A stretch of DNA of 64,000 nucleotides from Candidatus Acidiferrum sp. Lineage in GTDB: Bacteria; Verrucomicrobiota; Verrucomicrobiia; Limisphaerales; UBA8199. The notes under the pieces are model-generated. The model worked only from the letters and a program-made list of their open reading frames with translations, made no database searches and was not told where the DNA came from. A program made the translations under genes and the position numbers. Positions within the stretch are counted from its first letter, which is position 1; each line of letters opens with the position of its first letter. The DNA is taken from NCBI GenBank assembly GCA_035566435.1, contig DATMRF010000011.1, positions 26,878 through 90,877 on the forward strand, in the 5' to 3' direction. This document shows positions 147-51,226 of the stretch, one piece after another.

Positions 147-241
147 GTGATGCGTGAAACGTGAACCGTGCCGCGCGAAAGCGCCTGGCGGCGCCGCCAC
201 TTATTCCGCATCACGCTTCACGCACCGCGCCGTGTCACCTC
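147..241. repeat. Degenerate heptad array pair forming an imperfect hairpin (GTGNNNC family)
   Basis: 147-174 is GTGATGC GTGAAAC GTGAACC GTGCCGC. 207-241 is CGCATCA CGCTTCA CGCACCG CGCCGTG TCACCTC. Positions 151-164 pair with 211-224 (13 of 14, one bulge). Located just downstream of the phoH2 stop. Confidence 0.7.
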
Positions 242-252
242 GAATGACTCCG

Positions 253-1575
253 TTACAAAATGTTCGCCGCCAGCTCCGCCAGCTCCGACCGTTCTCCCTT
301 TTGGAGTTCGATGTGCGCGGCGACCGGCTCGGTGCGGAAGCGGCTGACTACGTAATTGAAGCCGTTCGAGGAGGAATCCACGTAGGGATTATCGATTTGG
401 TAGGGGTCGCCGGTGAGAATGATTTTGGTGCCGTGACCGACGCGGGTGATGATGGTTTTGGCCTCCAGCGGGGTAAGGTTTTGCGCCTCGTCAATAATCA
501 TGAACTGGCCGGCAATGCTGCGGCCCCGGATGTAGCTCAACGCCTCTACGACAATGCTGCCCGAACGCATCAGGTCGCCGCTGCGGCGATGCTCGTGGCC
601 CATGTTCAGGTCGCTGAGCATTTCCAGCGCGTCGTGGATCGGTTGCATCCACGGCGCCAGCTTCTCTTCGAGCGAGCCAGGGAGAAAACCCAGCTCTTTC
701 CCCATGGAAATGGTCGGCCGGGCCACCACCAGGCGCCGGAATTCCCGGTCCAGCACCGTCCGTTTCAGGCCGGCGGCCATCGCCAGCAGCGTCTTGCCCG
801 TCCCCGCCTTGCCCATCAACGTGACGAGCTTGACCTGGTCGTCGAGCAGCGCGTCGAAAGCAAAATGCTGTTCGCGGTTGCGCGGGCGGATGCCCCAAAC
901 ACCTTCGCGGCAGTCAATGATCGGCACCAGCCGCTTGCCCGTCGCGTCCACTTTGGCCAGCGCCGTGCGTTTCGGGTTGGTTTCGTCCACGAGCGTGCAA
1001 AACTCGTTGGGAAAATATTGTTGGCCGCCATTAAGCTCCAGTTCGCCGTTCGCGCGGAACGCGGCGATTCGCTCGGGACTGGCGCTCATCTCGATCATGC
1101 CCGTGTAAAGGTCCTTGAGCAGCACCCGGTCGTTCTCGTAATCCTCGGCCATCAGCCCGAGCGCGTCGGCCTTGATTCGGAGATTGATGTCTTTGCTGAC
1201 CAGGATCGTGTGAGCCTTCGGCTGCGTTTTTTTGATGCTGAAGGCCAGCGACAGGATGCGGTTATCCACCGAGTCGGTGCCGAACACCGCATGCCCATTC
1301 CGAGCCGGACCCGCTTTCTGAAAGGCGATGCGCAAGTGGCCGCCATTGGGCAGCGGCACCCCCTCGCTCAACTGGCCCGCGCCGCGGAAGCCGTCCAGCA
1401 TGCGCGAGACCATGCGGGCGTTTTGGCCGAGTTCGGTGGATTCGCGTTTAAAGCGATCAATCTCCTCGATGACCTCGATCGGCAGGAGGACATTGTTGTC
1501 CTCGAACTTGAGCAGGGAATTGGGGTCATGGAGCAGGACATTGGTATCAAGGATGTAATTCTTTTTCACGAGCAA
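253..1575 (-). CDS. PIN domain + PhoH-like ATPase (PhoH2/YlaK type)
   Basis: N-terminal PIN-like segment (ILDTNVLLHDP, IEVIEEID), Walker A GKAGTGKT, PhoH-type motifs IIDEAQNLT and GDPYQID. Listed first codon is TTG; GTG at 1569 is an alternative start. The 5' end overlaps the upstream GST-like gene. Confidence 0.85.
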   Translation of the reverse strand: MLVKKNYILDTNVLLHDPNSLLKFEDNNVLLPIEVIEEIDRFKRESTELGQNARMVSRMLDGFRGAGQLSEGVPLPNGGHLRIAFQKAGPARNGHAVFGTDSVDNRILSLAFSIKKTQPKAHTILVSKDINLRIKADALGLMAEDYENDRVLLKDLYTGMIEMSASPERIAAFRANGELELNGGQQYFPNEFCTLVDETNPKRTALAKVDATGKRLVPIIDCREGVWGIRPRNREQHFAFDALLDDQVKLVTLMGKAGTGKTLLAMAAGLKRTVLDREFRRLVVARPTISMGKELGFLPGSLEEKLAPWMQPIHDALEMLSDLNMGHEHRRSGDLMRSGSIVVEALSYIRGRSIAGQFMIIDEAQNLTPLEAKTIITRVGHGTKIILTGDPYQIDNPYVDSSSNGFNYVVSRFRTEPVAAHIELQKGERSELAELAANIL

Positions 1576-2233
1576 ACAGCTTCAATTGAACCTGCGCCAT
1601 GCGGCGATGCCAATCTTTCAGCCGGGTATGTTTGGTCGGCAGCCGGTAACGCCCCGAATACAGGAAGTTGCCCAGCATGCCGTACAAATCGAAATCGACA
1701 AACCGCGGCCGGTCGTCCATCAGGAAGGGCCGGAACATCAGCATCTCCTCGAAAGGAATCAACCGCTGCTCCAGTTGCGCCAGCAGTTCTTTTTGCTTCC
1801 CCTTCCACTCATCGATGCAGCACCGTCCGAACTTCCGCTCCTTATGACGCAGGAAACGCAGCCGGTCCGAAGCGGGCACCATGTCGCGCCAGTGGACGTC
1901 ATTGAGCCTGAAGCAAGGGCTCTCGATCTCGTTTTCGATATAGCGCCACAAAACAGATTGAACGCCTTCGAGTTCCCAGGGAAACAGGCCCAGTTTCAGT
2001 TTAGTGTCGAGATACTTCGCGATCACCTGCGAATCGTCACTGACCTCGAAGATCACCGTCTTGCCGTGCCGGATAATCGGCACGCCGTAATAACGTTGCC
2101 GGGTCACGCGCCAGACCAGGGAGCGGTCCCCATTGGGAATGTTGGTGATTTTGAAGTGGCTGCCTGAGAATTCCAGGATGCGGCGTTGGACAATGCAGAA
2201 AGGACTCCAGGGAAACTGAATCAGTTCAATCAT
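1547..2233 (-). CDS. GST / glutaredoxin-2-like thioredoxin-fold protein
   Basis: Thioredoxin-fold N-terminus (FPWSPFC ... YYGVPII) followed by a helical GST-C-like half. The ATG at 2233 overlaps the batE-like stop (2226) by 8 nt. Confidence 0.5.
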   Translation of the reverse strand: MIELIQFPWSPFCIVQRRILEFSGSHFKITNIPNGDRSLVWRVTRQRYYGVPIIRHGKTVIFEVSDDSQVIAKYLDTKLKLGLFPWELEGVQSVLWRYIENEIESPCFRLNDVHWRDMVPASDRLRFLRHKERKFGRCCIDEWKGKQKELLAQLEQRLIPFEEMLMFRPFLMDDRPRFVDFDLYGMLGNFLYSGRYRLPTKHTRLKDWHRRMAQVQLKLFAREKELHP

Positions 2234-3026
2234 GTCGCGAGTTGACTTTAGGATCGCCGGAGCGGACTGACAAGGGAAAATGCGAAATCAGGCCCAACTC
2301 GGCGCGCTCGACCCAGCCGCTTGCCCGGCTGGTGCGGATCAGCAAATAGTTGCCGCGGGTGCGCTCAAGACGCGCTGGCTCGCCGCCGGCAAGGCGAGTT
2401 ACGTTTTGCGCTTCCTGCGTGGGCGTGAGGCGCAGAGGCGTATCCTTCCTCAACACAAAACCGATGCGGGATCGAGTGTCCACACCGATATGGGCCGGAA
2501 CGCTCAGCAGGAAAACGGCGAAGCCAACGGCCGCGACCGCCTGGTGCCAGGCCCGTTTGCGCGCGCGAAAGATGCCGGGAAGCAGAACCAGGCCGACTGC
2601 CAGCCACAGGCTCGAGCCCGCCAGCCAGGCCCACCAGTTGACCGGCAGCCAGGTCGAGACCACTTCGTACCACGCCAGCTCCGGTGATTCAAGCTGAGCG
2701 GTTTTTCGCGCGTAGCGCAGATTCTCGCGGGCGTACGCGTTAAAGGGATCGAGCCACAGCGCCTGTTCCCAGGCGACCACCGCCGGCCCCGGGCGGCCAA
2801 GCTGCCATTCGGCGCTGCCCAGATTCTGCAATGTGCCGGAAGCCGGCCGGAGCTCCGCGGCCTGGCGAAACGCAGTGGCCGCTACTGGAAACTCGCCGGC
2901 GCGGTACGCCGCGGCGCCCGTTTGGAACAAGGCGCGGGCTGGTGAACCCTCTCCAGCACTTGCGAAGTGCAAAAAGAAGGTGAGCCAGAAAATCCGAAAT
3001 CCGAAACCCGAATCTCCGCGGTTCAC
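2226..3026 (-). CDS. BatE-like TPR/SH3 membrane protein
   Basis: TPR-like helices (AAAYRAGEF, LGSAEWQLGRPG, LWLDPFNAYAREN), two TM helices and a beta-rich C-terminal domain. Last position in the Bat-type operon. GTG start lies in a GTGA overlap with the upstream stop. Confidence 0.55.
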   Translation of the reverse strand: MNRGDSGFGFRIFWLTFFLHFASAGEGSPARALFQTGAAAYRAGEFPVAATAFRQAAELRPASGTLQNLGSAEWQLGRPGPAVVAWEQALWLDPFNAYARENLRYARKTAQLESPELAWYEVVSTWLPVNWWAWLAGSSLWLAVGLVLLPGIFRARKRAWHQAVAAVGFAVFLLSVPAHIGVDTRSRIGFVLRKDTPLRLTPTQEAQNVTRLAGGEPARLERTRGNYLLIRTSRASGWVERAELGLISHFPLSVRSGDPKVNSRHD

Positions 3027-9615: not shown

Positions 9616-9624
9616 GGGGTGCTC

Positions 9625-9709
9625 GAGTCTCAGGTCTCAAGTCCCAAGTTCGAAGTCCCGACACACAGGACGCGGGACTTGAGACCTTGGGACTTGAGGC
9701 TTGAGACGG
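9625..9709. repeat. Long hairpin built from two 5-unit heptad arrays (AAGTCCC family) between moxR and DUF58
   Basis: Left arm GAGTCTC AGGTCTC AAGTCCC AAGTTCG AAGTCCC (9625-9659). Right arm GGGACTT GAGACCTT GGGACTT GAGGCTT GAGACGG (9674-9709). Paired blocks of about 8, 13 and 8 bp. Confidence 0.75.
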
Positions 9710-12707: not shown

Positions 12708-15700
12708 CTATTCCGAGCAAGCACGACATAGGTGGCCCTCTCGCGCTGCAAGGAAATACAGCCAACCTTCAGCGACCCGCCGCTGATAGATCCTCTCCAG
12801 CGCCCCGGCATACAACCTGAGTTGTGGCTCATACAGCTTTACCTTGTCCAGCAATTCCTTGGGTGCCACCTCATCTGTCTTAAAATCCACCAGCCAAATC
12901 TTCTGTGGCAGGATCACCGCTAAGTCTGCGACTCCCTGAACCACCACGAACTCGCGCGCCAGGCTAGGGCTGGCGGGCTCGCCCGTGACCCGAGCCAGTT
13001 CTTCTGGCGAGAAGCGCGCTGTAAACGCCAATTCACGCCCGACGAACTGCGCCTGGGCACGAATCCTTGAGCCGAGATCTGAGCTCCAAAACGCACTCAG
13101 GCCGTCGAAATCGAGCAACATGGCCTCTTCGGCGCTCAAAACGCCTTGCTCCTCGAGGCGCCGTGCTTCTGATTTGAGCTGGGTGACGGTTTCCGTTTGT
13201 GTAATCGCAACTCGTTCCAAAAACACATGATGTGCGTTTCCCACGTCCACTGCCGACGCCTTCGCGGCCGGCTCGCCCACGCCGCCTTTGACCTGCGACC
13301 TGAGACGTTGGACGTTAGCCTTGAGGGTTGAAACCCGAGACCGTGGTCCGAGGGCTACAGACAACTCCTCCCTATCGTCGGCCACCGCCCTTCGCCGGAG
13401 GGCCGAGACCGAGGTCTTCGCGGGATGCCGCGTGGCAGCCCCAAACGCGTATTGCCAGGTCAGGCGTTCCTCCAATTCCTGCCACACTCGCGGTGTCGCT
13501 ATGGGCTCGAGACCACCGGAACTTTCGTCGTTGATTGCGTTAAGCTCGAGCGTTGCCAACCTTGTTTCGTCGTGGATTGTCCACTTGAGCCCGGCGCTTT
13601 CCCCCTGTCTGGCACTCTCGGCCGCGGCGCCGGCCCGTTGTGAAAACCAGAGGCCCAGCCAGTCTGCGTAACTGCCGGCGGCCAAGAGTGCGTCGTTGGT
13701 CAGCTCGCCGTGCGGCTGCCACAGTTTTTCGAATTTGGACTCCGAAACCGCCCCGCTGAGCAACAGTAGGTCGCGCGCGCGGGTCATCGCCACGTACAAA
13801 AGCCGCAACTCTTCTCCCAGCAATTCCCGTTTCTGCCGCCTGCGCGCGAGCCAATATGGCAGGCTAGGGTAACGTTTGCCGGTATGCGGCGGCTTAATCT
13901 GCGGGCACAAGCCGTATTCCTCATCCAGAATAATCTCGGCGCGGAGGTCTGACAGGTTGAACGGTTTGCCTAAGTCCGCCACGACCACAACGGGGAATTC
14001 GAGCCCTTTGCTCTGATGAATGCTCATGAGGCGGACCGCGTTCTCCTCACCCGCCGCCGCCACTTCCGGCTCGCTCTCCGCCAGTTGCTGCGCGTCGATG
14101 AACCGCAGAAAGCGGAATAAGCCCTGGCGCTGGAATTGATCGAATTGCTCGGCCAGCCCAAGCAGGCGCCGGACGTTGGTCTGGCGCTGTTGGCCACGTG
14201 GCTGTGTCAACAACCAGTCCGTGTAGTGCGTATCCGTCAGCACGGCCTCTAAACAGCCAGAAAGCGACACTTGCCGCGCCAGCTGCCGCCACCGCGCGAA
14301 CCGGTCCAAAAACGTGCCCACCTTGCTGAAGGCGGACTCTGGACTATCCGCTTTGGGCTTTGGACTATTGGCCTCGTGCCATCGGACCAGCGCTATCCAA
14401 AAGCGCGTCTTGAGCGCTGTGCGACGGATGGCGGCCAGTTCGTTGAGAGTTAGGCCGACCAGAGGCGAGTGGAGCACTGCCAGCGCCGGCAGGTCCTGCA
14501 GCGGGTTGTCCAGCAACTGCAGGAGACTCAGCAAATCAGAGATTTCCAGATTCCGGTAAAAGCCGCCGCGTGCCACCTGCAAAGGGACGTCGAGCCGGGA
14601 AAACTCCTTTGCATAGCTCTCGGCCTTGTGGGCCGGCGCACGCAGCAGGATGGCCATATCGCGCCACTCCACTGGCCGGAATTGGCCGGTGCCCTCATCC
14701 CAAACCGGGTGGAGGTCCGACTTCAACTCGCACAAGCGCATCGCCACCAGCCGCGCTTCCTTTGCCGCTTCTTCCAAATCCCTCGCCTCAGCCAACGCCT
14801 CAGCCATCTCCGGGTCGCCGCCCTCCGACTCCCCGGCGCTCTTGACCCGCAAATGCAGTTCGACGCAAGGCGTGGCATTGGCAGCGGCGCTAAAGGCCTG
14901 GCGGTCCTGAGCGGCGCCAAACCTCAAGCGGGCCGTTTCGTCGTAAGACACTCCCCCGAGCTCCCGGCGCATCGTACAGGCGAACACCGAATTGATGAAA
15001 TCAAGAATTCCCTCACGGCTGCGGAAATTATCCGTCAGGGGAATGGCCCGGCCCCGGCCACCGCCCCACTTTTCCACATAGCCCTGGAAAATGCCCGGAT
15101 TAGCCAGCCGGAATCGGTAAATGCTTTGCTTCACATCCCCAACCAGGAAGCGGTTTGCGTGCGCTCCCTCGCGGCTGAGTGCCTCGATGATCTTGTCCTG
15201 CGCCGCGTTAATGTCCTGGTACTCATCGACGAAGACAAAGCGCAGTTTTTCGCGCCATTGCTGCGCGATTTTCGTCGGCCGATTGTTGCCGACGTCCCAC
15301 AACAGCCGGAGCGCTTGTTGCTCGAGGTCGTGGAAATCGACCACTCCCAGTTCGCGTTTCGCTTCGTTGAACGCCCCAGTGAATTCCTTGGCTAGTTCCA
15401 GCAGCGTGGCCATCTGCCCGCGCACCCAGGACCAGTCTTCCATCAAGGGGTCTGTGTCACCGGTCGCCGTATTCAGTGACTCGAGAAAACCGGCCTCGTC
15501 GAGAAACGCCTGGAGCGGTTTGAGTGATCCTGTTTTCGCTCCGCGAGGGCGATCCCTCGCCGCCGCCGAAATGGTTTCCAGGCAGGCGGCGGACTCTGGG
15601 CGGTTAGGTTGAAGCGAGAGGGCTTTCAGCGCGGCGGCGCATTTGACGGCCAGGTCATTTCTGGCCGCCTCTCGTTCCAACACCTGCAGCCAGCGGGCTC

Positions 15701-16356: not shown

Positions 16357-16395
16357 AATTTGCGATTGCGATTTGCAATTTAGCATTTACAATTG
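16357..16395. repeat. Degenerate heptad array ATTTGCG family directly upstream of addA
   Basis: AATTTGCG ATTGCG ATTTGCA ATTTAGC ATTTACA ATTG, starting 5 nt from the addA ATG. Confidence 0.65.
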
Positions 16396-17371: not shown

Positions 17372-20300
17372 TCACTGAGTGGCGTGATTTACGCACTCGC
17401 CGGCCTTCTTCAGCGTTCGGTACTGATGCGTCCACGGCTCGATGCGGCAGATTGCCTGGTAAGCGCATTGGTCGCAGGCGACGGTCGTGCCTTTGCGGAA
17501 GGGCGCCACCTCGGCGGCGCCTTCGTAAATCCGCCGCCCCATCTGCTTCAAGTGCGCTTCGACGGAATCGAGCAACGCTTCGAATTCGGGCGTCGTCACG
17601 GCCTCGTGCGAGCTTTTGTTGATTCGCCCGTCCTTCGTGAGGCGATAATTAAACTGGTCGCCCTGCCGCGCCTCGGCCCGGCTGTCCAGTTGGCGCAATA
17701 ACCGTGCATCGAACCGCCCAGTGTGGCGATAGGCCAATTGTCGGGCTTCGTCGGCATTTTCCAGCGCGTCGCGCCGGTTCGCTTCGCGTTCGTACTTGCC
17801 GCGCAGGTTGACATAGAACACGCCTGCCGGCGCGAGCCGCGCGACGCCGAATTGCTCGTGGGGATTCGGCCACCGGCGCAGCACATTCAAATAGGCCAGC
17901 AACTGCAACTGCAAGCCATGCTGCAGGAACACTGCATCCAGTTGCTTTTGACTCGATTTGTAATCCACCACCACGCAGGACGCCGCCTCCCCTTCTCGGC
18001 ACAAATCGACCCGGTCGATCCGGCCGTGGAGGTGCAGTCGATGCACGCTGTCGAGCTCAAGACTCCAGGCAGGTGACGTGCCCGGATGCCCAAACGGCAG
18101 CTCCGCCGCCGTGGGGTCGAACCGGTACTGATGCCGCATCCAGCCGACCAGCGTTTCCACAAACTCCTCCAGCGACTCCGTCAGGATGCGGGCCATAAAC
18201 CTTGTTTCCTCACTCGCTTCGAGCAAGCCGTCGCGGTAACTCGCCCTCAGGCCCCGCGAGAGTGCCGCGATACGTTCGCGCGCCTCCGCCGGCGTGATGT
18301 CGCGCCAGCGCTTCCCTTCTTTCCGCAACTGCTCATGGAACAGCGCCAGCACGTCGTGCTGAAATGTCCCTTGTTCCTTGAGGTCCAGCTCGAAGCGCCT
18401 TCGCTCCTCCGCTCGCAAACCCGAGTGGACAAAAAACTTGAATGGGCAGGCGGCAAACTGCTCCATTCGGCTGACCGAAGTCCCAAGGACGGGTCCATAC
18501 AGGCTTTCCGCCATTTCGGGCGACAGCGACTCTTGCGGTCCCGGATTCTGAAAATGCCGCAATTGTTCGAGCACCGACGCCAGCGGCGGAATCGCGGCCA
18601 ATCGCTCCCAGCTCGTGATGCGTGATGTGTGATGGGTGATGCCAGCATCCGCTGTCGTCACTGACTCTCCACTGCAAACCTCAACCTGCGGTCCGTGGTC
18701 CTTGGTCCGTGGTCTTGAGGCTTGGAACTTGATACCTGAGGCTTTAAGCGCCGGCCCGATCAGTTCCGTCACATGCTCGCTTTCCCGCCAGTCCAGCGCT
18801 TTGGACTCGGTGTCGAACTCGAGTGATGGGAAGAGCCGCCGGACGTGTGCCAGGAAGGGCGATGGGTTGAGCGGCGTGCCGTGCGCGTCGCGATGAGCGC
18901 ACGTCAACACTAACCGGGCCCGCGCCCGGGTGCAGGCAATATACGCATAAAACCGTTCGCGGCCGAGTTGGTGGCGGGAGCTGGCCACGGCGGTGACGTT
19001 GTGTTTTTCCAATTCGATAAGGTCGGATTCCGTCAGGAGCACGCCAGGTTCGGGAGGCGCCGGAAAAACGGTCTCATTGAGGCCAAGCACCAGCGCCAAC
19101 TTGATGTCCGGGTTGCGCGAGCGATCGATGGCGCCGACGAGCACCTGGTCCAACGCCGGCGGAATGACTCCGACGGTGAGACTGGCCAGCCCGGCCTCGA
19201 GAATCGGCAGCCAGTCGCGGACGGTCAGCGCCTCGGCGGGGAAAGCCAATTCCACATTCTCCAGCCAGGTATTCATCTGTTCCCAAACAGCGGTGTGCAC
19301 CGAGTTGTCGATGGGCGATTCGGTGCTGGAGACGTCCGTGGCGGCCCACGCCTGGAGTTGCTGCTCGACTTCAAGGGCTTCCCAGAGCGCGCGCACCGCC
19401 GTTGCCAGTTGCGCGCCGGTCGGCTTATTTCGGCATTCGGCCATGGCCAGCGCGAGCCGCTGAAACGGCGGCATGATGCGCTCTTGCAGGCGGGCAACCC
19501 AATCGGTCAACTCGGGCTCGCCACTAATCACAATGGGTCTTTGCCACACCGCGCCCCGCCAGCCGCGGGCCAGCGCTTCGTTCTCCAGCCGGTCAATTTC
19601 GGCCTCCGCCACCCCGACCAGGCCGGTCTTCAGTACTGCGAACCAGTCATCCTGCTGCCATTGAAACGCGATGGTGCGCAGCGCGCTGCGCGCCAGTTCT
19701 GCCAACGGGTGGTGTGAAACCGACTTGCGCCGGTCCAGGAAAAACGGAATTCCATACCGTGAAAACACGCGTTGCAGGACCGAGTGGTACCCCTCCAGCT
19801 TCCGCACCATTACCGAAATCTCGCGATACCTTCCACCGGCGCGCACGTGTCGCAGGATTTCCCGCGCTGTCAATTTCGCTTCCTCCTCCGGCTCCACGCA
19901 CACCGCGACGCGCAGGCTCTGCCCCGGCCCGGCCATCTCCCCGGGCGGCGTCTCCGCACCCTGGTAAGGCTGCGGCTCGCCCCAATGCCGCTCCAAGTGC
20001 TGCAACGCGCCTTTCTCGGGAAACCGGCTCTGGCTGGGAATTCGCGACAGGGTTTCGGTGACCACCTCCACGCCTGCCAAACCGCCAAGCCGCTTCCGGC
20101 ATTGCTCCAGCGTTTTGCGGACCATCGACCAATGAGAAAGCCATGAGCTGTGTTTTCCCTCTACCCCCTCGACACAGAGTGCAACGGTCGCCCCATCGCA
20201 ATACGGCATCAGCGTCGCCAGCAACCCCAGCTCCAGCTGCGAGAATTCAGCAAACCCATCGACCCAAAGATGCTCAATCCGAACTTCCGACTTTGGACTT

Positions 20301-26358: not shown

Positions 26359-26448
26359 AAATTCGAAACCCGAAATTCGAAATCTCCGAAAACGCGTGCT
26401 CCAACGGGCCGATGCGAGGAGGTTTCGGACCTTCGAGCTTCGGATTTT
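26357..26448. repeat. Heptad arrays (AAATTCG / CTTCGGA family) forming an imperfect hairpin between convergent genes
   Basis: AAAATTCG AAACCCG AAATTCG AAATCTCCG AAAACGCG (26357-26398) is partly complementary to GGTTTCGGA CCTTCGAG CTTCGGATTTT (26421-26448). Confidence 0.6.
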
Positions 26449-33657: not shown

Positions 33658-34776
33658 CTAAATGTTCTCCCCGACGACTGGCGGCGGCTGATAGGTCAAC
33701 TCGGACTCGGGCGGCAGGGCGGCCTGCTCGCGCGCCAACACGCGGTATTGGCGAATCTGGAAGGAAACCTCGCGGCCATCTTCGAGCGCTTGATGCGCAT
33801 AATCCTCCTTGCTCATTCGGGCGCGGATGACGAGTCCGCTGGGCAACTCCAGTTCGACCCGCAGCATCACGCCCAGGAAGAAGGTGTGCCGGAGCACGGC
33901 GTGATAGCGGTATTGAGTGAGGTCCGAGGAAATCTGGACGGCATAAGGGCGGAAGCCGATGCGGATTTTTTGACCTGCGGCCAGCCCGTGCGCGGGGAAT
34001 TCGAGTTCGCCGATGCGGGCTGCGCCGTCGCGCACCTCCGGTTCGAGGACGTTCATGACGCCGATGAAGCGGGCGACAAATTCGTTGGCGGGTTGCTCGT
34101 ACACTTCGCGCGGGGCGCCAACCTGTTCGAGCAGGCCGCGCGAGAAGATAACGATGCGGTTGGCGACCTCCATGGCCTCCTCCTGGTCGTGCGTGACGAA
34201 GATCGTCGTCACGTTGAGATCGTGGTGCAAGGTCACGAGCCATTCGCGCAGCTCCTGCCGGATCTTGGCATCGACGGCGCCGAACGGCTCGTCCAGCAGC
34301 AGCACGCTGGGCTTGGGCGCCAGCGCCCGAGCGATGGCGACGCGCTGCCGCTGGCCGCCCGAAAGCTGGTGAGGGTAACGCTTCTCCAGGTTCTCGAGGC
34401 CGAACAGCTTGAGCAGTTCGTCGATGCGCGCTTTGATGTCGGTTCGCTTCCATTTTTTGATCTTGAGGCCGAAGGCGATGTTCCGGAACACGTTCATGTT
34501 CTTGAACAGCGCGTAATTCTGGAACACAAAGCCGATGTTCCGCTGCTGCACCGACACGTCGTTGACGCGTTTGCCCCGGATGAAGACGTCGCCGGACGTT
34601 GGGATTTCGAGCCCGGCGATCATGCGCAGGACGGTGGTTTTGCCGCCACCGCTCGGACCCAACAAAGCCATGAGCTCGCCCTCCTTCACCGAGAAGGAGA
34701 CGTTCTTGACGGCGGTGACGTCGCCGAACTGCTTGGTGACTTTTTGGAGTTCGATACTCAAGTGGTGAACTATCAA
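33658..34776 (-). CDS. cysA: Sulfate/thiosulfate ABC transporter ATP-binding protein
   Basis: GPSGGGKTT, LSGGQRQRVAIARAL, LLLDEPFGAVD and a C-terminal TOBE-like domain. Both candidate starts are TTG (34776 or 34761). Confidence 0.85.
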   Translation of the reverse strand: MIVHHLSIELQKVTKQFGDVTAVKNVSFSVKEGELMALLGPSGGGKTTVLRMIAGLEIPTSGDVFIRGKRVNDVSVQQRNIGFVFQNYALFKNMNVFRNIAFGLKIKKWKRTDIKARIDELLKLFGLENLEKRYPHQLSGGQRQRVAIARALAPKPSVLLLDEPFGAVDAKIRQELREWLVTLHHDLNVTTIFVTHDQEEAMEVANRIVIFSRGLLEQVGAPREVYEQPANEFVARFIGVMNVLEPEVRDGAARIGELEFPAHGLAAGQKIRIGFRPYAVQISSDLTQYRYHAVLRHTFFLGVMLRVELELPSGLVIRARMSKEDYAHQALEDGREVSFQIRQYRVLAREQAALPPESELTYQPPPVVGENI

Positions 34777-35687
34777 CTATCAACTTTCCCACTATCAACT
34801 CCCTGGCCCCTCTGCGCTCTGACGTATTCGCGCGCCTGCTTCCATTCGAGGAAGGTCTTGAGGGCGAGGGTCAGCAGCGCCAGGAGGGCCAGCAAACTGG
34901 CAACCGCGAAGGCGGCCGGGGCGTTGTATTCGTTGTAAAGCTTTTCCACGCGGAGAGGCATCGTGTCGGTCAGGCCGGTGATGTGGCCGGAGACGACCGA
35001 GACGGCGCCAAATTCGCCCATCGCGCGCGCGTTGCAGAGGATGATCCCGTAAACGAGGCCCCATTTGACGGACGGGAGGGTGACGTGCCAGAAGGTTTGC
35101 CAGCCGTTGGCGCCAAGGGTGAGCGCTGCCTGTTCCTGCTCGGAGCCGGTGGCCTGCATGACAGGGATCAATTCGCGGGCAACGAACGGGAAGGTTATAA
35201 AGACGGTCGCCAGAATGATGCCCGGCACTGCGAAAATGATTTTGATATTGTGCCCGTCGAGCCACTGGCCGAAGAAGCCCTGCAGGCCGAAGAGCACGAC
35301 AAACATCAAGCCCGCCACGACGGGCGAGACTGAGAATGGCAGGTCGATGAGGGTGATGAGGAGGGACTTTCCGCGGAACTCAAATTTGGCGATGGCCCAG
35401 GCGGCGGCGAGGCCGAACACGACGTTCATCGGCACGCTGATGGCGGCGACCAGCACGGTGAGGCGGATGGCGGCCCAGGAGTCGGGGTGGGTCAGGGACG
35501 CGACGTAGTAGGACCAGCCCCTGGCGAGGGCCTGGGCGAAGACGTTTGCGAGCGGCAAGAGCAGGAAGAGGAACGCGAAAGCCAGCGCCAGCAGGATGAG
35601 CAGCCACTTGATTACGGGGGACTCCTCGGTGCCGCGCCTGGAAGCGCTACGGGCGGCCAGCAATCGTCGTTTGGTCGTTCCGGGCAT
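34773..35687 (-). CDS. cysW: Sulfate ABC transporter permease
   Basis: Six TM helices and permease loop ARAMGEFGAVSVVSG. ATG at 35687 lies 2 nt after the cysT stop; ATG at 35714 is an alternative. Confidence 0.8.
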   Translation of the reverse strand: MPGTTKRRLLAARSASRRGTEESPVIKWLLILLALAFAFLFLLLPLANVFAQALARGWSYYVASLTHPDSWAAIRLTVLVAAISVPMNVVFGLAAAWAIAKFEFRGKSLLITLIDLPFSVSPVVAGLMFVVLFGLQGFFGQWLDGHNIKIIFAVPGIILATVFITFPFVARELIPVMQATGSEQEQAALTLGANGWQTFWHVTLPSVKWGLVYGIILCNARAMGEFGAVSVVSGHITGLTDTMPLRVEKLYNEYNAPAAFAVASLLALLALLTLALKTFLEWKQAREYVRAQRGQGVDSGKVDS

Positions 35688-36514: not shown

Positions 36515-36540
36515 TCAGAGGGCGAGAGGGGCGTGGGGCC

Positions 36541-36580
36541 AGGTTGTCAGGTTTTCAAGTTTTCAGGTCATCAGGTAGCC
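36541..36580. repeat. Octamer array CAGGTTTT family upstream of cysT
   Basis: AGGTTGT CAGGTTTT CAAGTTTT CAGGTCAT CAGGTAGC. Contains the reverse complement of the 15-mer CCTGAAAACTTGAAA that is also found at 40502-40516. Confidence 0.65.
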
Positions 36581-36722
36581 GGTGGCATAGTTGAGCAAAC
36601 ATTGCGAAAGTCGGTGCGAGCGCAAAAGGTTTCAATGTTCAATGTCTCCAATCGCAGGCGCGGCACCGTTTTCCGAGCGCAAGCGTTGGCGGCTGTGCCT
36701 GATCTTTGCCAGTAGATGCAGG

Positions 36723-36862
36723 GGAGGGCAAGAAAAGTTGATAGTGCTTAGTTGATAGTTGATAGCAGTCGAGGGTGGAGAGTTGAGGGTCGTTCGTTGA
36801 AGCTTTGGAGGGCAAGAAAAGTTGATGGTGAGGAAGTTGATGGTTGGATAGTTGATAGTTAA
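36723..36862. repeat. 84-nt-period direct repeat plus GTTGATAG word arrays in the sbp-cysT spacer
   Basis: GGAGGGCAAGAAAAGTTGATAGTG (36723-36746) versus GGAGGGCAAGAAAAGTTGATGGTG (36807-36830), 23 of 24. Each is followed by GTTGATAG/GTTGATGG words. The same word recurs reverse-complemented at 34771-34798. Confidence 0.75.
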
Positions 36863-40421: not shown

Positions 40422-40520
40422 GGGGGGTGGATTGATGGATTAGTGGATGGGTGGATTGTTGGAGTGATGGAGTGGTGGAGTGAGGCGTGGAACGTGAAAA
40501 ACCTGAAAACTTGAAACCTG
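40422..40520. repeat. C-free octamer array (TGGANNNN) followed by NNTGAAAA words between rrf2 and polX 3' ends
   Basis: GTGGATTGA TGGATTAG TGGATGGG TGGATTGT TGGAGTGA TGGAGTGG TGGAGTGAGG, then CGTGGAA CGTGAAAAA CCTGAAAA CTTGAAA CCTG. There is no C on the plus strand from 40422 to 40485. Confidence 0.7.
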
Positions 40521-42288: not shown

Positions 42289-42302
42289 ACGGACGGAAGA
42301 TA

Positions 42303-42400
42303 AAGTCCCAAGTCTCAAGTCCCAAGTCCAAAGTCGAACGTTCAAAGTCCACAGGCAACCGGCCGAAGTTTCAAGTTTCAAGTCTCAGGTCTCAGTTCCG
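42303..42400. repeat. 98-nt block in strict 7-nt register (AAGTCCC family), polX/thiD divergent spacer
   Basis: AAGTCCC AAGTCTC AAGTCCC AAGTCCA AAGTCGA ACGTTCA AAGTCCA, then a 14-nt linker, then AAGTTTC AAGTTTC AAGTCTC AGGTCTC AGTTCCG. Confidence 0.8.
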
Positions 42401-42452
42401 AGGCCGGGAGCGGGTTTTGCCATTGGGGCAACAGATGATTAGACTGGGGGCG

Positions 42453-43241: not shown

Positions 43242-43261
43242 TTTGAGCACAAACGCACAAT

Positions 43262-43982: not shown

Positions 43983-45109
43983 AAGAGGCGATTCGGCGCC
44001 GAGCGCGGGAATTGGGGTTTGATGATTGCCGGGTCACCACAGCGGAGCGGCCAGGTTCTGCCCAGCAATTCGAGCGCTGGCTGGCCGAAGGCCAACATGG
44101 GGAGATGGGCTATCTGGAACGCAACGCGGTCAAACGCGTGGCCCCGGGTCAAGTGCTCGCCGGCGCGAAAAGTATCATTACGCTGGCGGTGAGCTACGCG
44201 GGGACGGAGCCTCAAGTTGCAAGCTTCAAGTTCCAAGTTCCAAGTCCCAAGTCCCCGGAACACGCGACACGCAACACGCATTACGGTCCTTTGGGGCGCG
44301 GAGTGGTGGCGCGGTATGCGCGGTATCGGGATTACCATGAGGTGATGGGTGAGCGATTGAGGGAACTAAGGCGGTTTGTCGACCAAGTTGGCGGGGAAGG
44401 GACCCGGTCACTGTGGTATGTGGATACCGGGCCGCTGTTGGAACGCGATTTGGCGCAACGGGCGGGGTTGGGGTTTGTTGGCAAACACACGAACCTGATC
44501 AGCCGTCAGCTTGGCAACTGGATTTTTCTGGCAGAGATTCTGACGACGCTGGAACTGGAGCCAGACCTGCCGGAGAAGAACCGGTGCGGTTCATGCACCC
44601 GGTGCCTGGAGGCGTGCCCGACCGGAGCGCTCCCCGCTCCCTTCCAGCTCGATGCCCGGCGCTGCATCTCCTATCTGACCATCGAGCTAAAAGGTCCAAT
44701 TCCAATCGAGCTTCGGCCGGCGATTGGAAACCGGATTTACGGCTGCGACGATTGCCTGGCGGCGTGTCCGTGGAACCGGTTCGCGCGCGAGGGTCGGATG
44801 ATGAAAGCCCACGCGCGAACGGATTTGGCCGGGCCGGACCTGTTGGAATTACTTTCGATAGACGAAGCTGAGTTCAAACGGCGATTCGCTGGAACGCCGA
44901 TGGTTCGGGCCAAACGCCGCGGGTTGGTGCGGAACGTTTGCGTGGCTCTGGGCAATATCGGCGATGAGACGGCGCTGCCGGGCCTGGAACGAGCGGCGGG
45001 AGACCCCGAACCGTTGATTGCGGAGCACGCGCGGTGGGCGATGGAACGGATACGGGACCGGAAGGGGGCGGAGCGTGAAGCGTTGGAGCGTGACGGGGGA
45101 AGCCGTTAG
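43979..45109 (+). CDS. queG: Epoxyqueuosine reductase
   Basis: Two 4Fe-4S motifs CGSCTRCLEACPTGA and CDDCLAACPWN, plus C-terminal HEAT-like ALGN repeats. Carries an in-frame heptad-array insert at 44214-44283. Confidence 0.85.
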   Translation: MKEAIRRRARELGFDDCRVTTAERPGSAQQFERWLAEGQHGEMGYLERNAVKRVAPGQVLAGAKSIITLAVSYAGTEPQVASFKFQVPSPKSPEHATRNTHYGPLGRGVVARYARYRDYHEVMGERLRELRRFVDQVGGEGTRSLWYVDTGPLLERDLAQRAGLGFVGKHTNLISRQLGNWIFLAEILTTLELEPDLPEKNRCGSCTRCLEACPTGALPAPFQLDARRCISYLTIELKGPIPIELRPAIGNRIYGCDDCLAACPWNRFAREGRMMKAHARTDLAGPDLLELLSIDEAEFKRRFAGTPMVRAKRRGLVRNVCVALGNIGDETALPGLERAAGDPEPLIAEHARWAMERIRDRKGAEREALERDGGSR

Positions 45110-45137: not shown

Positions 45138-46052
45138 CTAAGTTCTGCTGCGGTGGCGGCCAAAGAGTTGAGCGCGGGCGGCGGAGGTGATGGCAAGGAC
45201 TGCGGGGTGACGGAGTTTGCGTTCGGCGGTGATGGCGTAGAACTGCTCGCGGCAATCGGAGGTTCGACCCACGACCTGGAATCCGTAGCGGTTGACGGCT
45301 TCGTGGAGCGCGCAGGTGGGGAGCGCGAAGAAACCGAGGGCATCCGCGGCGGCGGTTTTCAGCAGCGCCGCGTCGTCGTATTCGGCGACGAGGCGGGGGC
45401 GAATCTGGCGGGTCTGGAACCAGTTTTCGAGGGACCGGCGCAGCGGGCTGGCTCCGGGAAGCAGGACGGGGGCCTGGTCGAGCGATTGGGGGAAACGACG
45501 GGCGAGTTTCGCGGCGAGCGAAGGTGCGGCGCAAAAGGTGACCCCGCATTCGCCGAGCAGATGGTTGAAGACCTTGACGTGGAGCGAGCTTGGAGCAGGC
45601 TCGTTCGCGAGGACGATATCGAGTCGGTAAACGCCGAGCTGTGCCAGCAAGTCGGCGGTTTTGCCCTCGACGCAGGCGGCCTGCACGGGCTGTTCGAGGC
45701 TGAAGATCGGCTTGATCAGTTCATGGGTGACCAGCTTGGGCAGCGAGTCGGCGATGCCGATGTGGACGCGCAAGGGCCGGCGGGTGGGCCGCTGTTTGAG
45801 TGCGAGCAGCAGTTCCTGGCCCAGCGCGAAAATGTCCTTCGCATAGCTGAAGGCCTGCTGGCCGGTTTCCGTCAGGCTGAGTCCGCGCGGGCTGCGGCGG
45901 AACAGTTTTTCACCGAGGGCATTTTCGAGAGCGGCGATCTGGGCCGAGATGGTCGGCTGCGAGACGCGCATTTTCTCCGCGGCCTTGCGCAAGCTGCCTT
46001 CCTGGGCGACGGTCCAGAAGTACCGCAGGTGGTGGTAGTTCAAAAAATCCAC
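45138..46052 (-). CDS. LysR-family transcriptional regulator
   Basis: HTH LRYFWTVAQEGSLRKAAEKMRVSQPTISAQIAALE with a LysR substrate-binding-type C-terminal domain. GTG start. Confidence 0.85.
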   Translation of the reverse strand: MDFLNYHHLRYFWTVAQEGSLRKAAEKMRVSQPTISAQIAALENALGEKLFRRSPRGLSLTETGQQAFSYAKDIFALGQELLLALKQRPTRRPLRVHIGIADSLPKLVTHELIKPIFSLEQPVQAACVEGKTADLLAQLGVYRLDIVLANEPAPSSLHVKVFNHLLGECGVTFCAAPSLAAKLARRFPQSLDQAPVLLPGASPLRRSLENWFQTRQIRPRLVAEYDDAALLKTAAADALGFFALPTCALHEAVNRYGFQVVGRTSDCREQFYAITAERKLRHPAVLAITSAARAQLFGRHRSRT

Positions 46053-48004: not shown

Positions 48005-48053
48005 GTGGATAGTGATGAGTGACCAGTAATCAGTAAGCAGTGGTCAGTCGCTG
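48005..48053. repeat. Seven-unit heptad array GTNNNNA downstream of pckG
   Basis: GTGGATA GTGATGA GTGACCA GTAATCA GTAAGCA GTGGTCA GTCGCTG in perfect 7-nt register. Confidence 0.75.
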
Positions 48054-48132: not shown

Positions 48133-49230
48133 ATGAACCTCGAGACTGTTTTGGCGCGGATTGTGTCGGCGGAAATTGTGGGCTTTTGCGTAGGCTCGTT
48201 GAAAACCGGGCTGGCTCTCTGCCTGTTAGGAATGCTTGCAACCGGCGCGCAACCCAATCTGCGTGCAGCCGAAGCAAGCGGCGGCGGGAGCAAAGGCCTA
48301 TTGCTGGTGGCCAACAAGGGGGACCAGACGCTCGGCATTATTGATCCTGAAACCGGCCGGCAGGTTGCCACGGTGCCGGAGGATGGTGTGACCGGCCACG
48401 AAGTCGCCGCGTCCCCCGATGGGAAACGAGCTTTTGTTCCGATCTACGGCAATTCGGGGGTCGGTCACGCCGGGACGGATGGCAGCCTGCTGCGGGTGAT
48501 CGACCTGGCCAAGCGGACGGTGATCGGGACGGTTGATTTCGGAAAAGGCGTTCGACCTCATTGCGCGGTCTTCGGTCCGAAGAACGGTTTGCTTTACGTA
48601 ACAACAGAGCTGGAAGACGCCCTGACAGTGATTGATCCAGACACATTAAAGATTGTCACCACCATCCCTACTGGACAATCCGAGTCTCACATGCTGGCGA
48701 TCACGAGCGATGGCCGGCGCGGCTACACGGCGAATGTCGGGCCCGGCACGGTGTCGGTGCTGGACCTGGAAACGAAGAAAGTGCTGGAAGTCATACCGAT
48801 CTCGCGCACCACCCAGCGCATTGCGCTTTCGCCCGATGACCGCTGGGCCTTCACGGCGGACCAAACCAAACCGCAGCTCGCCGTAATCGATACCGCGAGC
48901 AACAAAGTGAAGCACTGGGTGACCCTGCCCGGAGTCGGCTACGGCACGGCCGCGACGCCGGATGGCCGTTGGTTGCTCGTCGCGCTAATCGGCATCAACA
49001 AAGTAGGCGCGGTGAACCTGGACACTATGAAGGTCCAGCACACGGTGGATGTGCCCCGTGCCCCGCAGGAAGTGGTCGTCCGTCCTGATGGCGCCGTGGC
49101 TTATGTTTCCTGCGATGCGAGCCGACAGGTCGCCGTGTTGGACCTGAAGGATTGGAAAGTGGAAAAGCTAATCGATGCGGGACGTGGTGCAGACGGGCTG
49201 GCGTGGGCGGGGGGTGAAGGGAAGCGTTGA
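48133..49230 (+). CDS. Secreted YVTN/YncE-like beta-propeller repeat protein
   Basis: Repeated ~40-aa units (SPDGKRAFV, TSDGRRGYTAN, SPDDRWAFTAD, TPDGRWLLVA, RPDGAVAYVS) with V.D..T.K motifs. Confidence 0.65.
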   Translation: MNLETVLARIVSAEIVGFCVGSLKTGLALCLLGMLATGAQPNLRAAEASGGGSKGLLLVANKGDQTLGIIDPETGRQVATVPEDGVTGHEVAASPDGKRAFVPIYGNSGVGHAGTDGSLLRVIDLAKRTVIGTVDFGKGVRPHCAVFGPKNGLLYVTTELEDALTVIDPDTLKIVTTIPTGQSESHMLAITSDGRRGYTANVGPGTVSVLDLETKKVLEVIPISRTTQRIALSPDDRWAFTADQTKPQLAVIDTASNKVKHWVTLPGVGYGTAATPDGRWLLVALIGINKVGAVNLDTMKVQHTVDVPRAPQEVVVRPDGAVAYVSCDASRQVAVLDLKDWKVEKLIDAGRGADGLAWAGGEGKR

Positions 49231-49233
49231 GGC

Positions 49234-49261
49234 GTGAAACGTGATGCGTGAAACGATTAGC
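49234..49261. repeat. Heptad array GTGAAAC GTGATGC GTGAAAC GATTAGC after the beta-propeller gene stop
   Basis: Contains the 15-mer GTGATGCGTGAAACG (49241-49255), which is shared with 147-161 and 51128-51142. Confidence 0.7.
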
Positions 49262-49621: not shown

Positions 49622-49716
49622 ACCACGAACCGCACCAGGGGCATGGAAAAGAGCCGCCGTCTTATCCGACGGGGCGGATTCTGTCCCGGCTGTCAGAACT
49701 CTCCGCAGCACCGGCG

Positions 49717-51111
49717 ATGAGAATTTTTGGTGGGTGGTTTTTGATCGGCCTGGTGTGCCTCAGCCCAAGCGACCTTCGAGCGCAGACCGAGGCCAAGGAG
49801 AACCGTGAAGCTCGGCCGAAACGTCTGGTGATTGTCGCGCCAAGGGCTTTTTATCCCGCCCTGAAGGAATTTGTACGTTATAAAAGCATTCTGCTGCCGA
49901 CCGAATTGGTCTCGCTGGAGACGATTCTTCAGCGCGGCATCGGGGCGGATGATCCGGAGAAGCTCAAGCGTTTCCTGTACGAGCGGTGGCGTCATCGCGA
50001 CCTCGGATACGCCTTGTTGGTTGGGGATGTGGACGTGCTACCAGTGCGATTCATGGTTCTCGATCGGGTCACTCCGGCGGCCTACGATTATGCGTTCTAC
50101 CCGAGCGACCTTTATTACAGCGATTTGGCCAAAGCCGATGGTTCGTTCGAGGACTGGAACGCGCGCAAGGAGTCGTTTCACGCCGCATACTTTGGAGAAG
50201 TTAGAGGCGAGAAGAACAAGCACGACCCGATCAACTACGACGCGGTGGATTACCTGCCCGACATTGCCGTCGGGCGCTGGCCGGTCAGCACATCGGAAGA
50301 GGTTCAACGAGTGGCTGCCAAAACGATCGCGCGCGAGCGCCTGGTGTCAGCTGGGGACGACCCGCAATTGCAGCGGGCGGCACTATTGGCGGTGGGCGGC
50401 TGGGTGGACAGCCGGCATCTGCTGGACGACCTCGCCGCCAGACTCACGAATTCCTGGCGAGTGGAAAAGCGGTATTACTCCGACAGGGGCCACCCGGCAA
50501 GCATGTTGCCGCCGAACCATGAGCAGGTGCGGGCGCTGTTGGAGAACGGGGTCGGCCTTGTGGTGCATACCGGTCACGGCGCTGCGGATGCATGGGAGCA
50601 ATGTTTTTCAGTCCGTGACCTCGACGGCCTCACCAACGGCCCCGCGCTGCCGGTTGTCATTTCGGCCGGGTGCAGCACGGCCTATTTTGCGCCGCTTCCA
50701 CCCTACGATGGCTATGTCGACGTGGATGGCAAGGAGCACGCCGGCACCGACCATGGGGAGAGGTTCGACGCGCCCCCGCCGCCGCCGTCGCCGTATCAAC
50801 GCGGCCGGTTCAACCCGACCGGCCTGGGCGAGCAATTGCTCAAGCGCGGGCCCAACGGGGCGGTCGCCTATATTGGCTGCGATACCGGCAGCCAACCTTG
50901 TGCCCTGACGTTAGTCGAAGGATTCGTCACCGCGTTGAGCGAAACGAAAACGCCACGCCTGGGCGATTGTTGGGCCGAGGCAATTCGCCATTACTTCGAT
51001 AAGGAGCACCTCGCCGATCTAAAACCGAATGACGATTGGTATCCGCCGAGCATCTTTTTTCAAGGGATGAAGTTTATGGTATTCGGTGATCCGAGCTTGA
51101 GAGTCCGTTGA
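49717..51111 (+). CDS. Peptidase C25 (gingipain-like) family protein
   Basis: Signal peptide MRIFGGWFLIGLVCL, YALLVGDVDVLP, His VVHTGHG and Cys ISAGCSTAYF dyad context. The ORF upstream of 49717 overlaps the ABM gene and was trimmed. Confidence 0.7.
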   Translation: MRIFGGWFLIGLVCLSPSDLRAQTEAKENREARPKRLVIVAPRAFYPALKEFVRYKSILLPTELVSLETILQRGIGADDPEKLKRFLYERWRHRDLGYALLVGDVDVLPVRFMVLDRVTPAAYDYAFYPSDLYYSDLAKADGSFEDWNARKESFHAAYFGEVRGEKNKHDPINYDAVDYLPDIAVGRWPVSTSEEVQRVAAKTIARERLVSAGDDPQLQRAALLAVGGWVDSRHLLDDLAARLTNSWRVEKRYYSDRGHPASMLPPNHEQVRALLENGVGLVVHTGHGAADAWEQCFSVRDLDGLTNGPALPVVISAGCSTAYFAPLPPYDGYVDVDGKEHAGTDHGERFDAPPPPPSPYQRGRFNPTGLGEQLLKRGPNGAVAYIGCDTGSQPCALTLVEGFVTALSETKTPRLGDCWAEAIRHYFDKEHLADLKPNDDWYPPSIFFQGMKFMVFGDPSLRVR

Positions 51112-51120
51112 GGCGAAAGA

Positions 51121-51226
51121 GGGATGCGTGATGCGTGAAACGTACGAGGTTGAAACGTTAAAAGGTTAAAACGGAGAAAACGTTAAACGCAATTCTTTCA
51201 CGTTTCACGCATCACTCTCACGCTTC
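51121..51226. repeat. Heptad/octamer arrays forming a 16-bp perfect stem between convergent genes (possible bidirectional terminator)
   Basis: GTGATGCGTGAAACGT (51128-51143) pairs perfectly with ACGTTTCACGCATCAC (51200-51215). The 56-nt loop is itself made of GTTAAAAC-type words. Confidence 0.7.

Follow-up and report, generated by a model that had tools for sequence, protein, structure and literature searches.

The short tandemly repeated repetitive (STRR) sequences of heterocystous cyanobacteria, reportedly described by Mazel and colleagues (1990), and the heptanucleotide repeats of several other bacteria are the closest known counterparts of the arrays analysed here, which lie dispersed over a 64-kb stretch of contig DATMRF010000011.1 (the window, meaning the whole of that stretch). 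Three tandem heptanucleotides were recorded in Calothrix PCC 7601, and GGGAATC and GGGGA(C/T)T heptamer repeats in Xanthomonas and Nostoc, respectively (PMC4692102), whereas TAACTGA repeats are found in Beggiatoaceae (PMC4679880). The Geobacter metallireducens study lists GGGACCG in four copies at 49 inter- or intragenic sites, sometimes several per gene, as well as mostly paired sets of the octanucleotide GTTGCTYN (four copies) and of MTYCTGA (five copies), which its authors read as regulatory RNA elements or regulator-binding sites (PMC2700814). More generally, the 2007 survey of Mrazek, Guo and Shah, as cited in PMC4679880 and PMC4692102, found heptanucleotides to be the most abundant class of long simple sequence repeats (SSRs) in most prokaryotic genomes, and slippage over a polymerase contact of ~7 nt was proposed there as the cause. 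The window contains about 20 short runs of degenerate 7-nt, sometimes 8-nt, tandem repeats. They are part of a strong, lineage-wide excess of period 7, and arrays are present in about one third of the spacers.

The arrays were detected with Tandem Repeats Finder (TRF) and with a scan for self-matches at fixed lags (at least 19 matches in 28). TRF reported period 7 at 18 places (2990, 9622, 9676, 16357, 18614, 18690, 20283, 20330, 26359, 34768, 36736, 36835, 42303, 42366, 44213, 44259, 49221 and 51123) and period 8 at four (36540, 40428, 40498 and 51147), with 72-100% matches between the units of an array. The lag scan of the window gave 15 regions at lag 7 and six at lag 14, compared to 0-3 at lags 4, 5, 8-11 and 13, and first-order Markov simulations yielded 0.2 regions in the same scan. 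In the 30 intergenic spacers of at least 30 nt (5,035 nt in total), nine were over the threshold of 15 matches in 21 at lag 7 and three at lag 8, with none or one at the remaining lags, whereas dinucleotide-preserving shuffles of the spacers gave a mean of 0.03-0.07 and a maximum of one. By TRF, lag scan and shuffles, the dispersed degenerate arrays with a common unit vocabulary that the original prediction had read from the letters of the window are therefore real, and its own counter-case, that such arrays might be no commoner than in shuffled spacers, does not hold. The last array ends near 51.2 kb and none was found farther along the window.

Three long strings had been listed as recurring far apart, and all of them are exact, with 0 expected by chance in each case. 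A 16-mer is found at 9634-9649 and 42312-42327, the 15-mer GTGATGCGTGAAACG at 147-161, 49241-49255 and 51128-51142, with a fourth copy on the minus strand at 51201-51215, and another 15-mer at 40502-40516 recurs inverted at 36553-36567. The claim that each array keeps certain anchor positions was supported by the distribution of unit mismatches over the seven columns, which is unequal (summed variance of 19.18 versus 11.23 +/- 2.01, with 6 of 5000 simulations as high), a statistic that is inflated by 14- or 21-nt duplications of already diverged two- or three-unit blocks. Perfectly conserved anchor columns were weakly above random (34 versus 30.0 +/- 2.2 expected). A weak array placed near 10754-10780 falls outside the heptamer family: its period is 9 nt (CGCGGATAG, 2.7 copies at 10753-10776, in a divergent spacer of 675 nt).

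Chance periodicity or an artefact of assembly, for which nothing speaks except the origin of the sequence in a metagenome assembly, has in our view a negligible probability. Besides the shuffles and the other lags, it is contradicted by a metagenome contig of 48.6 kb from ENA (L001; L-numbers designate related contigs or loci compared with the window), which is identical base for base to window positions 36160-57980 (21.8 kb), arrays included. The arrays of that part are thus not the artefact of a single assembly, although the two assemblies may share reads. L001 was the only contig with DNA among the results of an identical-protein lookup, and its complete identity over that part makes it uninformative on strain polymorphism. 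Reading frames are kept through the coding arrays, and the same phenomenon is seen in 31 of 80 related contigs from many samples, so that confinement to the window, the other way in which the arrays might have proved spurious, is also contradicted.

These 80 contigs (721 kb) were obtained by a metagenome scan with the PolX protein, and their PolX sequences are 71-84% identical to that of the window. Their lag scan, which had been proposed as a check, again singled out lag 7 (69 regions, with 42 at lag 14 and 1-14 at lags 4, 5, 8, 10, 11 and 13); lags that are multiples of 3 were raised, as expected from coding repeats. The distribution is patchy, with arrays in 31 contigs and none in the other 49. 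L071 has 10 arrays in 21.7 kb and L029 has seven, and the lag scan found none in L042, L065, L069 and L021 (16-22 kb each). L015 and L071 could be aligned over 9,380 nt with 99.87% identity, and their sole indel is one unit, TCTGACC, inside an array; this is the one case in which a whole-unit change of copy number between strains was seen. For several window arrays TRF scores were better at periods 14, 16, 21 or 24 than at 7 or 8 (higher-order periods were also reported at 42302, 44208, 40424 and 49228), which shows recent growth by duplication of multi-unit blocks, often of 14 or 21 nt. The relatives contain perfect four-fold repeats of CGCACTC, GGACTTC, GGATTTC, CCGAAAC and CGAACAT, which are presumably young arrays, and in orthologous spacers arrays were lost or swapped between close relatives.

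The host of the window is a member of the Verrucomicrobiota and is Limisphaerales-like. The relatives of its AddB protein in a collection of species-representative genomes are metagenome-assembled genomes (MAGs) with Verrucomicrobiota, Verrucomicrobiia or Limisphaerales in their titles. The nearest, L004 (DATMQA010000136.1; 62% identity, same array sites), is binned as Candidatus Binatia and may be mis-binned, all other relatives being Verrucomicrobiota. Outside this phylum, a contig of 45% GC from a Pirellulales (Planctomycetota) MAG (L010) carries AATTACC / CCAGTTA arrays at 2466-2512 and 16441-16497, and heptamer arrays may extend across the Planctomycetes-Verrucomicrobia-Chlamydiae (PVC) group.

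We consider it probable, if far from certain, that these are slippage-driven arrays of the STRR and long-SSR kind, filtered by selection, sometimes co-opted, and with some copying between loci. Arrays would gain and lose units in place through slipped-strand mispairing or through unequal alignment in replication or repair, would decay by point mutation and then be amplified again, and would persist wherever they are harmless, for instance in a promoter whose -35 motif is itself a repeat unit. Inverted pairs could stay complementary, for example via template switching, and might serve as hairpins in transcripts, at 3' ends or between cistrons. New loci were probably seeded by copying of existing arrays or of array-bearing hairpin elements, which would account for the common vocabulary.

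The array next to the PolX gene points to a local origin rather than an insertion. A -10-like box, [ACT]ATA[ACT]T and mostly CATATT, is present in 60 of 77 relatives with its end 6-7 nt ahead of the PolX ATG, and 51 of those 60 have a TTG 15-18 nt upstream. Such a short distance between box and ATG implies a leaderless mRNA, and from these alignments the PolX gene appears to be transcribed as one. In the window (42289-42351) the -10 region is diverged and reads TATCTT, 10 nt ahead of the ATG. The upstream alignment of the 80 relatives showed that two heptamer units already make up the conserved -35 region, TTTGGnC-TTTGAAC, and that their number rises to 4-7 in L070, L072, L074, L080 and the window (42303-42351); the PolX-proximal array of the window sits where this conserved promoter motif lies. 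An added unit would leave a TTG-containing unit equally far from the -10 box, and this unchanged spacing would explain why expansion is tolerated there.

Other arrays are located within genes, in frame and in variable loops of the conserved proteins encoded (AddB, AddA and QueG in the window, Mfd in a relative), with a coding strand free of stops. The original prediction had placed most arrays exactly at gene boundaries. Most are indeed found between genes or at their boundaries, but 18615-18745, 20281-20364 and 44214-44283 lie in frame within coding sequences; that several of the listed loci are in-frame insertions in addB and queG had gone unnoticed, and the coding array at 13284-13325 in addA was missing from the list. 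Overall, about two thirds of the arrays fall between genes or at gene boundaries, though non-coding DNA makes up only ~12% according to a crude gene caller. As this caller stretches open reading frames (ORFs) to the first start codon and over-calls coding arrays near 5' ends, arrays were counted as coding only when deep within ORFs.

The addB ORF is intact, with ADDB_N and PDDEXK_1 domains (Pfam). Compared to Bacillus subtilis AddB (3U44), the array at 20281-20364 corresponds to an unaligned insert of ~32 residues (3U44_B) and the arrays at 18604-18745 to ~15 extra residues. The same sites are occupied in the orthologues of L004 (both sites), L009 and L003, whereas L005 and L008 have short linkers instead. 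At the first site (aa ~210-238) L004 carries NNGTCCA units, as does the window, and L009 carries CCGAAAC units; arrays lie at or near the second site (aa ~750-793) in L004 and L003. The queG array is found in a loop of the DUF1730 domain that is gapped in the alignment to B. subtilis QueG (5D08), and the Pfam match extends over 98 aa against a profile of 77 positions. In L029, the orthologue of the transcription-repair coupling factor Mfd (1029-4901) contains eight in-frame heptamer arrays in its linkers, whose peptides include SPKSKVQS, KSIVHNPKSIVQS, LWTLDFRLWTH and IQHPASSIQHPASS, and the recurrent peptides SPKSKVQ and WTLDF are (AAGTCCA)n translated on its two strands. Arrays also lie deep in the ORFs for a GyrA/ParC-like protein (L061) and for a pseudouridine synthase-methyltransferase fusion (L054). 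In the window, addB (17372-20995, minus strand) and addA (12708-16352, minus strand) are split by a plus-strand ORF without Pfam match (16480-17343).

A 7-nt array passes through all three frames, and to survive within a gene it must therefore be read on a strand without stops in any of them. The GTGATGC arrays are read as GCATCAC in addB, and three of the 92 consensus units have stops on both strands, versus ~12 expected (derived from shuffle means). Avoidance of stop codons was rejected as the source of the vocabulary, its effect being mild (57 of the 92 units are stop-free on both strands, versus 48.7 +/- 3.7). Annotators and alignment pipelines should expect spurious 5' extensions of ORFs and odd low-complexity inserts, such as SPKSKVQ, in conserved proteins, as a result of the arrays.

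Structurally, the arrays form two classes, inverted pairs that give long hairpins and unpaired, strand-asymmetric arrays that are unstructured. RNA folding yielded -59.2 kcal/mol for 140-252 (z = -4.1 versus shuffles) and -46.4 kcal/mol for 26352-26471 (z = -2.6), with z = -6.2 for 9616-9712 and z = -3.1 for 51112-51246, and the loops of these four hairpins are mutually unrelated. Several arrays had been said to pair into hairpins; this was borne out at these four loci (147-241, 9625-9709, 26357-26448 and 51121-51226), the only ones that clearly beat shuffles. The minus strand of 36720-36866 folds with only -1.5 kcal/mol, 40394-40533 folds worse than shuffles (z = +2.35), and neither 42289-42434 (z = -0.4) nor the hairpin to which 48005-48053 belongs (z = -0.8) folds better than shuffles. 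Arrays occur in convergent, divergent and tandem spacers, including those within operons (MoxR-DUF58, BatD-TPR), and some, at 34768-34800 and 49241, extend over a start or stop codon. The features are listed in Table 1.

Table 1. Heptamer and octamer arrays of the window, with the evidence for each and its genomic setting
Position	Feature	Strand	Evidence	Setting and remarks
145..230	Hairpin of inverted arrays, units GTGATGC / GTGAAAC / GTGAACC		Folding, inverted arms	PhoH/PIN gene stop (253) on one side, next minus-strand gene start (~72) on the other; arms 145-164 and 211-230
2988..3018	Array AAATCCG / AAACCCG		TRF period 7, 3.3 copies, 93% matches	Directly past BatD-like gene stop (3023), before TPR gene (Pfam); overlaps terminator-like match 3016-2996, minus strand
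9620..9709	Hairpin of inverted arrays, (A/G)AGTC(C/T)C and complement		TRF, arms, fold	Spacer from MoxR-type ATPase stop (9713) to DUF58 gene start (9615); arms 9627-9651 / 9683-9707, 88% complementary; 16-mer common with 42312
13284..13325	In-frame array in addA, ~aa 1010-1030	-	Lag-7 scan, translation, Pfam UvrD-helicase	
16357..16395	Array ATTTGCG / ATTTGCA / ATTTAGC		TRF period 7, 5.6 copies	Divergent spacer, adjoining addA start (16352); holds promoter-like TTGCGA-16-TACAAT at 16366-16393
18604..18745	Two in-frame arrays in addB, ~aa 750-793	-	TRF	Plus-strand units GTGATGN x4, then GGTCCGT ... CTTGAGG
20281..20364	In-frame 12-unit array in addB, ~aa 210-238, anchor GGAC	-	TRF	84 nt = 28 codons; 96% matches at period 14 (20323-20362) vs 73% at period 7
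26357..26448	Hairpin of inverted arrays, CGAAATT / CGAAACC and complement		TRF, fold	Between convergent genes, U-runs on both flanks
34768..34800	Array AACTATC		TRF period 7, 4.6 copies; Pfam	Junction of permease stop and ABC-ATPase start; plus strand complementary to the AGTTGAT units at 36736
36528..36582	8-nt array CAGGTTTT		TRF period 8, 4.6 copies; lag-8 scan	15-70 nt upstream of permease gene start (36514); 15-mer common with 40502, inverted
36736..36860	AGTTGAT arrays with 84-nt higher-order duplication		TRF rows 36736, 36819, 36835; direct repeat	Directly downstream of substrate-binding protein gene stop (36867); minus-strand RNA unstructured, G-poor
40424..40520	8-nt arrays TGGATTGA and AAAACCTG		TRF periods 8, 16, 24	Between convergent Rrf2 and PolX genes; plus strand G-rich, which predicts C-rich RNA downstream of PolX gene
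42297..42407	Two direct arrays, AAGTCCC type and AAGTTTC type		TRF periods 7, 14, 21	Fill the divergent PolX-pfkB spacer
44207..44285	In-frame arrays in queG, CAAGTTC / CAAGTCC then AACACGC, ~aa 79-102	+	TRF	
48005..48053	Weak array GTNNNNA		Lag-7 scan	Past PEPCK gene stop (47980)
49221..49261	Array GTGAAAC / GTGATGC		TRF period 14, 92% matches	Spans predicted ATG (49244) of ABM-domain gene, inside GTGATGCGTGAAACG; other ATG 12 codons downstream
51106..51230	Hairpin, arms of GTGATGC / GTGAAAC units, loop = 8-nt array AGGTTAAA		TRF period 8 for loop (51147-51187)	Convergent genes; arms 51106-51140 / 51196-51230, 16-nt perfect core

Such positions might indicate that the arrays are selected cis-elements, either platforms for a protein with a 7-nt footprint on single- or double-stranded nucleic acid (e.g. 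a cold-shock-type OB fold) or regulatory hairpins, and the binding of one CspB protein per heptamer has been discussed (PMC4679880). Anchor columns kept above random mismatch placement, the same unit types in genomes whose PolX proteins are ~71-84% identical, the location of arrays beside start and stop codons and within operons, and hairpins that fold better than shuffles are all in line with selection. However, the vocabulary is broad, with dozens of unit types, the same units are found on either strand and in and out of genes, arrays are lost or swapped in orthologous spacers of close relatives, 49 of the 80 related contigs are array-free, and no single rule of position or orientation was found, all of which makes this explanation improbable. 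Scans of the window for sigma-70 promoter-like and intrinsic terminator-like sites showed no enrichment, with only two incidental overlaps with arrays. Of the GC-rich hairpin followed by a U-tract past a stop codon that typifies intrinsic terminators, the window arrays show U-runs only at 26357-26448, in addition to the weak match at 3016-2996, and U-tracts are absent at the other hairpins.

Several observations weigh against slippage in place as the sole process. Its support is thin, with one unit-indel polymorphism in hand, and slippage alone does not predict the uneven conservation of unit columns. The hairpin function is putative, and classical terminator-like sites are not enriched. Of all pairs among the 92 arrays, 50 agree in their consensus unit, in any rotation and on either strand, compared to 3-6 expected (pairs at distance 1 number 173, versus ~78 expected), and strings of at least 11 nt are shared by 13.8% of non-adjacent array pairs on the same contig but by 2.9% of pairs on different contigs. 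Arrays built of GTGATGC and GTGAAAC units recur in at least five genomes (the window, L013, L022, L029 and L033), in places that are not orthologous. L071 and L025 have flanks that are ~89-95% identical overall, and yet the same two spacers hold unrelated, sharp-edged blocks of 75-100 nt, which in L071 are hairpin arrays. L071 also contains three copies of a composite, in which a 27-nt core, GGCGCGCACGGAGTGACACGCCCTACC, is preceded by a purine-rich array and followed by a pyrimidine-rich one; the copies differ in unit number. Some dispersal of array-bearing sequence between loci is therefore likely.

The core resembles repetitive extragenic palindromic (REP) sequences. Its palindromic form is GGCGCGCACGGAGTG(A/G)CGCGCCCTACC, and it is located in L071 at 1796-1860, 4570-4625, 11794-11881 and 12034-12062, arrays flanking three of these four copies. 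It is found without arrays in the fourth copy and in L040 (2864-2952), L082 (7919-7946) and L084 (1870-1894).

Both the composites of L071 and the occurrence of the core alone would fit a scenario in which the arrays were, or travelled with, small mobile hairpins that have heptad-periodic arms, of the REP/REPIN type or of the type of miniature inverted-repeat transposable elements (MITEs), spread by a transposase or by templated repair, with slippage as a secondary process. The sharp-edged replacement of blocks between L071 and L025, a 23-nt match of 96% between 143-165 and 51197-51219, and the sharing of strings within genomes, about five-fold above that between genomes, also agree with mobile hairpins. 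However, similarity between loci of the window is confined to the periodic parts and never extends beyond them, the hairpin loops being unrelated, and the REP-like core is absent from the window. Neither a transposase nor a REP-associated tyrosine transposase (RAYT) nor a reverse transcriptase was found among the genes scanned with Pfam or with precomputed Pfam calls, which cover most of the window. Moreover, many arrays are direct and unpaired, the PolX-proximal array lies at a conserved local promoter motif, and several orthologues have arrays at the addB sites of the window. We regard mobile hairpins as a rather unlikely explanation.

Alternatively, the arrays might not be passive microsatellites only, but the product of a sequence-aware process particular to this clade, by which heptad units would be written or copied into new places, essential repair genes among them; the hairpins and linkers that result would then have been co-opted for gene expression and protein architecture. 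Sharing of units between non-orthologous sites, swaps of cassettes, array-core-array copies and a burst-like patchiness fit such a process and go beyond slippage alone. The process may consist in a dedicated mobilising or templating enzyme or in ectopic templated repair between arrays. We give it little credence, and continue to prefer slippage with selective filtering and occasional copying.

The genes of the window, which has a GC content of ~61%, are ordinary chromosomal ones. They include a PhoH/PIN gene, an aerotolerance-type operon (Bat/MoxR-DUF58-VWA), addA and addB, a gene for an RCC1/Ig protein, an ABC-transporter/porin cluster and genes for PolX, PfkB, shikimate kinase, QueG, PEPCK and a C25 peptidase, as well as several GFO/IDH/MocA oxidoreductase genes. 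Covariance-model and tRNA scans of the window detected no Rfam family at the gathering score and no tRNA gene. The GC skew at 36000-46000 is strongly positive (+0.15 to +0.31), far above the rest of the window, and is partly accounted for by minus-strand genes and G-rich arrays. The pfkB-aroK spacer contains a perfect 23-nt inverted repeat (43261-43283 / 43316-43338) with a third copy at 43356-43379, which is GC-rich, non-heptameric and absent from the 91 other loci, and has the appearance of a REPIN-type doublet. A direct repeat of 221 nt with 95% identity (62810-63030 and 63541-63761) lies in the 5' parts of two adjacent minus-strand genes and represents either a recent pair of tandem paralogues or gene conversion.

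The clade offers a natural comparison for the questions why bacterial genomes favour 7-nt tandem repeats and what STRR-type arrays do, as array-rich lineages with up to ~5 arrays per 10 kb contrast with close relatives with 0 in 16-22 kb. Comparisons between lineages are possible for orthologous spacers as well as for orthologous protein loops, and replication and repair genes could be tracked against array density. Both this contrast and the way in which arrays have colonised conserved repair genes in frame, at positions that remain occupied in orthologues, could help to address the question "why seven?". Whether hairpin arrays mark RNA 3' ends can also be asked in this phylum, classical terminator-like sites being unenriched in the window.

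CRISPR repeats, iterons, telomere-like synthesis and nickase-driven repeat synthesis were rejected as identities of the arrays, as there are too many unit types, no spacers and no single template. Rickettsia palindromic elements are mobile palindromes of 100-150 bp with a conserved sequence, which lie in frame in conserved protein genes and add loop segments to the products. The in-frame loop inserts of the window are similar in this respect, but they are 7-nt arrays without a common non-periodic sequence. The Geobacter elements, as far as the source describes them, resemble the window arrays in having about four tandem 7-nt units plus 8-nt sets, with different units. Like the repeats of Xanthomonas, Nostoc and Beggiatoaceae, the window arrays are intergenic heptamer arrays, some of them inverted pairs, found near start codons and variable in length and sequence in the same spacer between close species. 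In those organisms, however, one unit dominates, which is G-quadruplex-prone in Xanthomonas and Nostoc, whereas dozens of units occur together here and only 40424-40488 is G-rich. The units TAACTGA, GGGAATC, GGGGAYT and GGGACCG, as well as the STRR1-3 units CCCCAGT, TTGGTCA and CAACAGT, are absent as tandem dimers from the window and from 896 kb of related loci.

With the long SSRs, to the extent that the 2007 survey is summarised in later papers, the arrays share the preference for period 7 over neighbouring periods, the intergenic bias and the variation in length between related strains. The repeats counted in that survey were near-perfect, and the genomes that headed it were those of Burkholderia, cyanobacteria, Actinobacteria and Xanthomonas, whereas the window arrays are mostly degenerate and belong to the Verrucomicrobiota. 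Full-text searches for Verrucomicrobia, Pedosphaerales and Limisphaerales gave no earlier description, in agreement with the original prediction; the heptanucleotide class itself is known, and its occurrence in Verrucomicrobiota is apparently not yet described. The choice of STRR as the nearest analogue was fair in kind. Both are tandem heptanucleotides at dispersed, mostly intergenic loci (~18 in the 64 kb of the window), with a few unit types reused across loci and related genera. The window arrays differ in the phylum of their host, in being short (3-12 units) and degenerate, and in including many inverted pairs, some 8-nt periods and several arrays in frame in coding sequences. They are therefore not STRR by membership, and belong to the same class by kind and by probable mechanism.

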